DNA from: Escherichia coli
Lineage (GTDB): Bacteria > Pseudomonadota > Gammaproteobacteria > Enterobacterales > Enterobacteriaceae
Reading direction: 5' to 3' (one strand)
Assembly (NCBI RefSeq): GCF_044324875.1
Contig: NZ_CP172185.1
Length of the DNA stretch: 64,000 bases
Positions 9,524 through 9,929 of the stretch are shown in pieces. Every line of letters begins with the position of its first letter. The stretch's first letter is position 1. Below the pieces are notes generated by a model. That model made no database searches. It saw only the letters and a program-made list of their open reading frames with translations, and was not told the DNA's origin. The position numbers and the translations under genes are program-made.

Positions 9524-9929
9524 AAATCATACTGCCTGTGGATGTGGTGTTGTAACGTTAAATTTTTGTGCCAATCCCTGGGGATGATACAGCGGTATAT
9601 TTAAACAATTTTAGCGGGAAATACTCCCAACCAGGCGCGGCGAAGAATAGTTTTTCGATTTACCGCGTGAATGCAGTCAGTATGACAGCACCTGAAGCGC
9701 AATTTAAACGCTTATAACGTTTTAAAGCAAGAAGGGATCTAAAAACCAGAGGTATATAGCGATAAGAAATCACCAACCAGTATAAAACACTATTTCCGTA
9801 AAAAAGACATGGCTAATCATGCGAACAAAAAATCACCAACCGTTGTAAAATCTAACGCCCGTATTTTGACTGCAAAGAAAATAAGCCAGCATCGGCTGGC
9901 TTATGGCAATAAAAGATGACAAAGGCGGA

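Follow-up and report, generated by a model that had tools for sequence, protein, structure and literature searches.

Two direct copies of a short sequence lie upstream of brnQ, a branched-chain amino acid transporter gene of Escherichia coli, and raise the question of whether they are binding sites for a common regulator or merely look alike. A first-pass annotation of the 64-kb stretch of DNA analyzed here (hereafter, the window) had described the copies as carrying an A/T-rich tail and lying about 60 bp apart, and had proposed that they bind a regulator, dimeric or oligomeric, such as Lrp. We have addressed this question by examining the repeat itself, its variation within E. coli and across 80 orthologous brnQ loci (one per species), and the promoter-proximal DNA in which it is embedded.

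Results

Open reading frames and BLAST searches place brnQ within the gene order phoB-phoR-brnQ-proY, all four genes being encoded on the minus strand (phoB, 11283-11972; phoR, 9930-11225; brnQ, 8204-9523; proY, 6755-8131). Both repeat copies are housed in the 406-bp spacer between phoR and brnQ (9524-9929), in which the K-12 RefSeq annotation records no feature; likewise, an Rfam search of 9400-10000 with E-values of up to 10 returned zero matches. The repeat is built on an exact 12-mer, AAATCACCAACC, found on the plus strand at 9767-9778 and 9830-9841 with a start-to-start distance of 63 bp. Extended to 9764-9787 (copy 1) and 9827-9850 (copy 2), the copies are identical at 20 of 24 positions and, judged by eye, their similarity reaches approximately 35 nt if one gap is allowed. 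Read on the sense strand of brnQ (the minus strand), the repeat unit is TTTTAYAMYGGTTGGTGATTT; relative to the brnQ start site, copy 1 extends from -71 to -94, with its A/T tail at 9778-9787, and copy 2 from -134 to -157. Both are downstream of the phoR intrinsic terminator, a minus-strand hairpin followed by a T-run (9881-9904) that bounds the brnQ regulatory region on its upstream side, and upstream of the brnQ promoter. The two tailed direct copies are therefore present as first described, their earlier coordinates having been 1-4 nt off.

The excess of the 12-mer repeat over chance is borderline. Of 2,000 dinucleotide-preserving shuffles of the spacer by itself, 0.65% gave an exact 12-mer direct repeat (p=0.0065). 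When the whole 64-kb window was shuffled, one or more exact 12-mer pairs no more than 100 bp apart occurred in 36% of cases (mean 0.58 pairs), and hence statistics alone establish no function for the repeat.

Within the species, the repeat is polymorphic. Strain K-12 MG1655 carries GATTGGTGATTT as copy 2, with A replacing G at the equivalent of 9840 (position -147) to leave an 11/12 match. Among 5,426 complete E. coli genomes, an exact 35-mer around copy 1 is found in 4,978 and one around copy 2 in 3,830; both exact copies occur together in at most 71%. The window differs from K-12 in the spacer by five single-base differences (at 9840, 9800, 9895, 9732 and 9669), and its sequence from 9764 to 9850 is matched exactly by only 3 of 5,423 genomes.

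Across species, the pair is not conserved. Of the 80 species-representative genomes, a single one has the core GGTTGGTGA upstream of brnQ, and there as copy 1 only; the pairing of copies is absent from E. albertii and 77 other Enterobacteriaceae. Alignment shows the corresponding cores to be GAATGGTGA and GATTGATGA in E. albertii, and GTCTGGTGA and GGTTGATTA in a sister Escherichia (locus L003). The unit-to-unit local alignment score, 28 in the window and 23 in locus L001, is 15-17 in E. albertii and L003 and approximately 13 in Citrobacter. Similarity of the units fell within the top 5% of control windows for 13 of 79 species, against approximately 4 expected, the species not being independent of one another. 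Furthermore, the per-column information content of the two copies, taken in register, is uncorrelated (r=0.07), such that the invariant G9837 carries 2.0 bits and its partner G9774 only 0.06 bits, and profile-to-profile similarity is at background level both for the copies (z=0.3) and for their cores (z=1.05). A paired direct-repeat operator would keep both copies and constrain the same positions in each, and neither behavior was observed. The first-pass annotation had named a lack of conservation in orthologous promoters as evidence against its proposal, and such a lack is what the 80 loci show. Direct repeats of the iteron-like or tandem operator type, which bind oligomeric regulators, share with the brnQ copies their placement on one face of the helix (63 bp, or approximately 6 turns); the brnQ copies differ from them, however, in being polymorphic, in not being jointly conserved and in having unrelated patterns of constraint.

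The same data bear on the origin of the copies. These could be the vestige of an ancient 63-bp tandem duplication, comprising an Lrp-type site and a linker, whose halves have since diverged. Such an event would fit with the 63-bp offset between aligned blocks, which is kept in nearly all species, with the weak similarity of the units that persists in some genera (the 13 species in the top 5%) and with a region laid out with a period of 31-32 bp. Nevertheless, similarity peaks in E. coli and drops at once in sister Escherichia, the reverse of what an ancient duplication predicts, and the two units have unrelated conservation profiles; we therefore regard a duplication as improbable.

The copies precede a mapped promoter. 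A single brnQ start site has been placed at 418645, the gene itself beginning at 418815, which gives a 170-nt leader, and the equivalent start has been mapped in K. pneumoniae, where the promoter sequence is the same (Kim et al. 2012, PMC3415461, supplement file 2). In the window this start is an A at 9693 on the minus strand, served by a core sigma-70-type promoter at 9702-9730 (-35 element TTGCTT at 9725-9730, 17-bp spacer, -10 element TTAAAT at 9702-9707) that is nearly invariant in the 80 species; a simple sigma-70 promoter scan did not call this mapped promoter, which is a limit of the scanner. An invariant imperfect palindrome, TTTAAAACGTTATAAGCGTTTAAA, lies across the promoter spacer and the -10 element at 9703-9726, and could be an operator or merely reflect core-promoter constraint. 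Upstream of the -35 element, CTGGTTTTTAGATCCC (-56 to -41) is conserved and includes an invariant GATC, a Dam methylation site at 9736-9739 (-46 to -43).

In 74 of the 80 species the segment from -149 to +1 (9693-9842) measures exactly 150 bp, despite its partly variable sequence. Conversely, the lengths of its flanks vary, with leaders of 167-188 nt (and one 336-nt outlier) and 25-39 nt between the terminator and the conserved block described below. Constant length between variable flanks indicates that the architecture of this segment depends on helical phase.

At its promoter-distal end the segment holds a nearly invariant 34-bp block (9809-9842, -149 to -116), with the sense sequence CGnnTGnTGnTTTTTTGTTCGCATGATnAGCCAT, that is conserved across the 80 Enterobacteriaceae. 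The core of copy 2 forms the promoter-distal edge of this block, which also contains a near-palindrome, CATGnnTAnnCATG. There is one such block per genome, no E. coli genome has a second copy of the 47-nt region around it, and we could match the block to no known motif.

Two small open reading frames overlap the repeats, which might then reflect coding sequence. A 16-codon sense ORF (MISHVFFTEIVFYTGW), running from 9820 to 9770 on the minus strand, ends at a TGA inside copy 1, and a 36-codon antisense ORF (MANHANKKSPTVV...) at 9809-9919 on the plus strand begins in the invariant block, where its ATGGCTAATCATGCGAACAAAAAA is nearly invariant, and passes through copy 2. However, the antisense ORF ranges from 8 to 55 codons across species and the length of the sense ORF differs in Citrobacter; would-be wobble positions of the block are as conserved as the rest; both ORFs are upstream of the sole mapped start site; and the K-12 annotation is empty there. 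Because their lengths are not conserved, we have rejected small ORFs as an explanation, and consider a coding origin of the repeats to be barely credible.

The case for Lrp begins with published data. By genomic SELEX, the phoR>brnQ spacer contains an Lrp peak, at 418534 (Shimada 2015, PMC5320599, Table S1), and brnQ-proY is among the genes affected by Lrp (PMC4474525); Lrp binding upstream of brnQ is, like the position of the brnQ promoter, already published. The peak corresponds to approximately -111, 111 bp upstream of the mapped start and between the two copies, on an array of 60-mer probes placed every 105 bp, a spacing at which the repeats are not resolvable from the two Lrp-like sites described next.

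Our calling of Lrp sites rests on the 15-bp IUPAC consensus YAGHAWATTWTDCTR (Cui et al.). The best match in the spacer is TAGTGTTTTATACTG at 9778-9792 on the minus strand, centered at -92 and upstream of the promoter, with 2 mismatches; 14 positions in the 64-kb window are this good. Its YRG...CTR arms are conserved across genera, and over the 80 species it averages 3.85 mismatches. A second minus-strand site, at 9747-9761 and centered at -61, just upstream of the invariant GATC, averages 2.9 mismatches and has no more than 3 in 79% of species, against a background of 0.56%, with a weaker version, CGCTATATACCTCTG, in E. coli (5 mismatches, counted by hand). No other consensus matches in the spacer are as well conserved as the sites at -61 and -92 (permuted-consensus p of approximately 0.027 and 0.020), which share the pattern YRG-N9-CTG, with a pair profile similarity of z=2.9. 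They are 31 bp, or three helical turns, apart, which falls within the 30-33 bp or so expected of phased sites and is kept in orthologous promoters; indeed, 79 of 80 species have exactly 46 bp from -99 to -54. It follows that the conserved repeat of this region has a 31-bp period and lies at coordinates other than those of the repeat first noted. The ATAAT-like center of the -61 site could instead serve a minor upstream promoter as its -10 element, against which stands the mapping of only one start site in each of two species.

Lrp-regulated promoters such as ilvIH, pap and gltBDF are laid out with an Lrp step of approximately 31 bp. The 63-bp spacing of the repeats is twice this step, the Lrp peak lies midway between the copies, and the tail of copy 1 overlaps the 2-mismatch consensus match; these observations lend some appeal to the original suggestion that the repeats are equivalent sites, about six helical turns apart, through which Lrp or another dimeric or oligomeric regulator provides leucine-responsive control of brnQ. 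Closer inspection of the sequences argues against it. The core common to the copies, GGTTGGTGATTT, is unlike the Lrp consensus, and the repeated 12-mer contains no match to it; in copy 1 only the A/T tail overlaps the -92 site. Copy 2 does no better than 4 mismatches, 2 nt out of register with copy 1; in the register of copy 1 itself, it shows 7 mismatches (hand count). Moreover, the copies are neither conserved nor equally constrained, conservation of Lrp-like sites is seen at -61 and -92 instead, and K-12, the strain of the SELEX experiment, lacks a perfect copy 2. Equivalent sites are consequently an unlikely explanation. The idea of Lrp acting upstream of brnQ is right for the region, where the SELEX peak and the overlap with the tail of copy 1 sustain it, and wrong for the repeat element, whose cores show no likeness to the Lrp consensus.

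We also considered whether the copies might be E. coli-specific sites of another regulator. By eye, they bear some likeness to a PhoP-type direct repeat (TGTTTT-N5-GGTTGG) or to a bipartite MarA/SoxS-type box (TCAC...TAAA), and the local statistical rarity of the repeat would be in keeping with such a role. Neither consensus is matched well, 4-5 of the specified positions being mismatched, the positions at -82 and -145 are atypical for such activators, and the core contains a common polymorphism. A full-text literature search with the sequences of the repeat, block and palindrome yielded irrelevant primer matches only, and no tie of these sequences or regulators to brnQ. This alternative appears very unlikely. 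Comparison by eye with motifs for CRP, PhoP, MarA, IHF, Fis, sigma-54, sigma-E, PdhR and GcvA gave no convincing match.

Several features of the transcribed leader (9524-9692, minus strand), which is itself strongly conserved, merit description. The brnQ ATG is closely preceded by an invariant CA-rich block, CAACACCACATCCACAGGCAG (9532-9552), the predicted target of the GcvB seed region R1. Windowed duplex folding gave the best predicted R1 pairing at -54 to -25 from the ATG (9548-9577; -24.5 kcal/mol), in agreement with brnQ being a published GcvB R1 target (PMC9299463); duplex folding of GcvB against the whole length of the leader performed no better than shuffles. The leader may further form a hairpin, GCGYGGU...RCCRCGC, drawn by hand with 9668-9662 paired to 9641-9635 around a conserved 20-nt loop, AAAUCGAAAAACUAUUCUUC. 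This predicted hairpin has moderate support: one pair is UA in 19 sequences, CG in 6 and UG in 2, and 80% of cells are paired compared with 35-51% in slid controls. It has no Rfam family, and RNAalifold predicted essentially nothing from 30 leader sequences.

A genomic SELEX peak for RpoN and NtrC has been reported at 418832, near the brnQ ATG (PMC8743547), or approximately 9506 in the coordinates of the window. The sequence TGGCAC at 9567-9572 resembles a sigma-54 -24 element and is followed 5 nt later by TTTAA, not TTGCA. Elsewhere in the window, a 485-codon ORF on the minus strand (3137-4594) has no Pfam match and contains internal direct repeats, with three copies of CGCAATTTTTTC at 3692-3755 spaced 36 and 12 nt apart; we presume that this ORF is not expected at this position of the K-12 map.

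Discussion

Taken together, our findings suggest that the two repeat copies are probably a lineage-specific and fortuitous similarity inside a real brnQ upstream regulatory region, and not equivalent sites for a regulator. The regulatory region comprises a sigma-70 promoter preceded by the 150-bp indel-free segment, in which the Lrp-like sites at -61 and -92 are accompanied by the 34-bp block. While Lrp binding to the spacer is itself published, we infer from the sequence where contact is made: Lrp would most likely occupy the phased -61 and -92 sites as an oligomer and modulate transcription from upstream of the -35 element, the direction of this regulation being likewise a matter of inference. 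A further Lrp contact, or another protein, may be positioned on the invariant 34-bp block. The core of copy 1 is a poorly conserved linker, free to drift, between the two Lrp-like sites, and in E. coli this linker would by coincidence resemble the edge of the invariant block, thereby creating the 63-bp repeat.

Some observations sit less comfortably with a fortuitous origin. A 12-mer repeat is rare when the 406-bp spacer is considered alone (p=0.0065), and the number of species with units in the top 5% exceeds expectation. In addition, 63 bp corresponds to six helical turns or to two Lrp steps, so that E. coli may have acquired a function of its own here.

The arrangement that we describe for brnQ invites comparison with the phased arrays of Lrp sites at ilvIH, gltBDF, pap and livJ/livK. 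As in these promoters, an AT-rich upstream region binds Lrp in vitro, two consensus-like sites are found 31 bp apart upstream of the -35 element and their spacing is free of insertions and deletions; brnQ is, moreover, a gene for branched-chain amino acid transport. It departs from them in that its repeated 12-mer is no Lrp motif and that the -61 site is degenerate in E. coli; the additional 34-bp block, for its part, has no counterpart in the Lrp consensus. The GATC close to the -61 site brings to mind the pap operon, with its interplay of Lrp and Dam. A second parallel is offered by yhjE, encoding a low-affinity Ile/Val permease, whose promoter has a strict requirement for Lrp and is repressed by Leu, Met and Ile (PMC12708883). 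Both genes encode secondary branched-chain amino acid permeases of E. coli tied to Lrp; however, Lrp dependence of yhjE was shown with a reporter, whereas the reports on brnQ concern binding and regulon membership. We found brnQ to be absent from the Reg-Seq preprint.

It is tempting to speculate further that the segment from -149 to +1 serves as a rigid nucleoprotein platform throughout the Enterobacteriaceae, with Lrp dimers phased at -61 and -92 and, cooperating with them, a further factor bound to the 34-bp block (core CATGATTAGCCATG), of which the core of copy 2 is a part. Such a platform may also involve the invariant GATC at -46 to -43. We put this forward as a tentative idea, less likely to be right than wrong; were it true, the E. 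coli repeat would be a by-product, and the block would represent a new regulatory site in branched-chain amino acid uptake.

The repeat that prompted this analysis is not a conserved element, and as a finding it matters little. The additions that emerge from its surroundings are modest, namely the candidate Lrp sites at -61 and -92, the invariant 34-bp block and an indel-free architecture of 150 bp. Nevertheless, they could guide the study of how enterobacteria tune low-affinity uptake of branched-chain amino acids.
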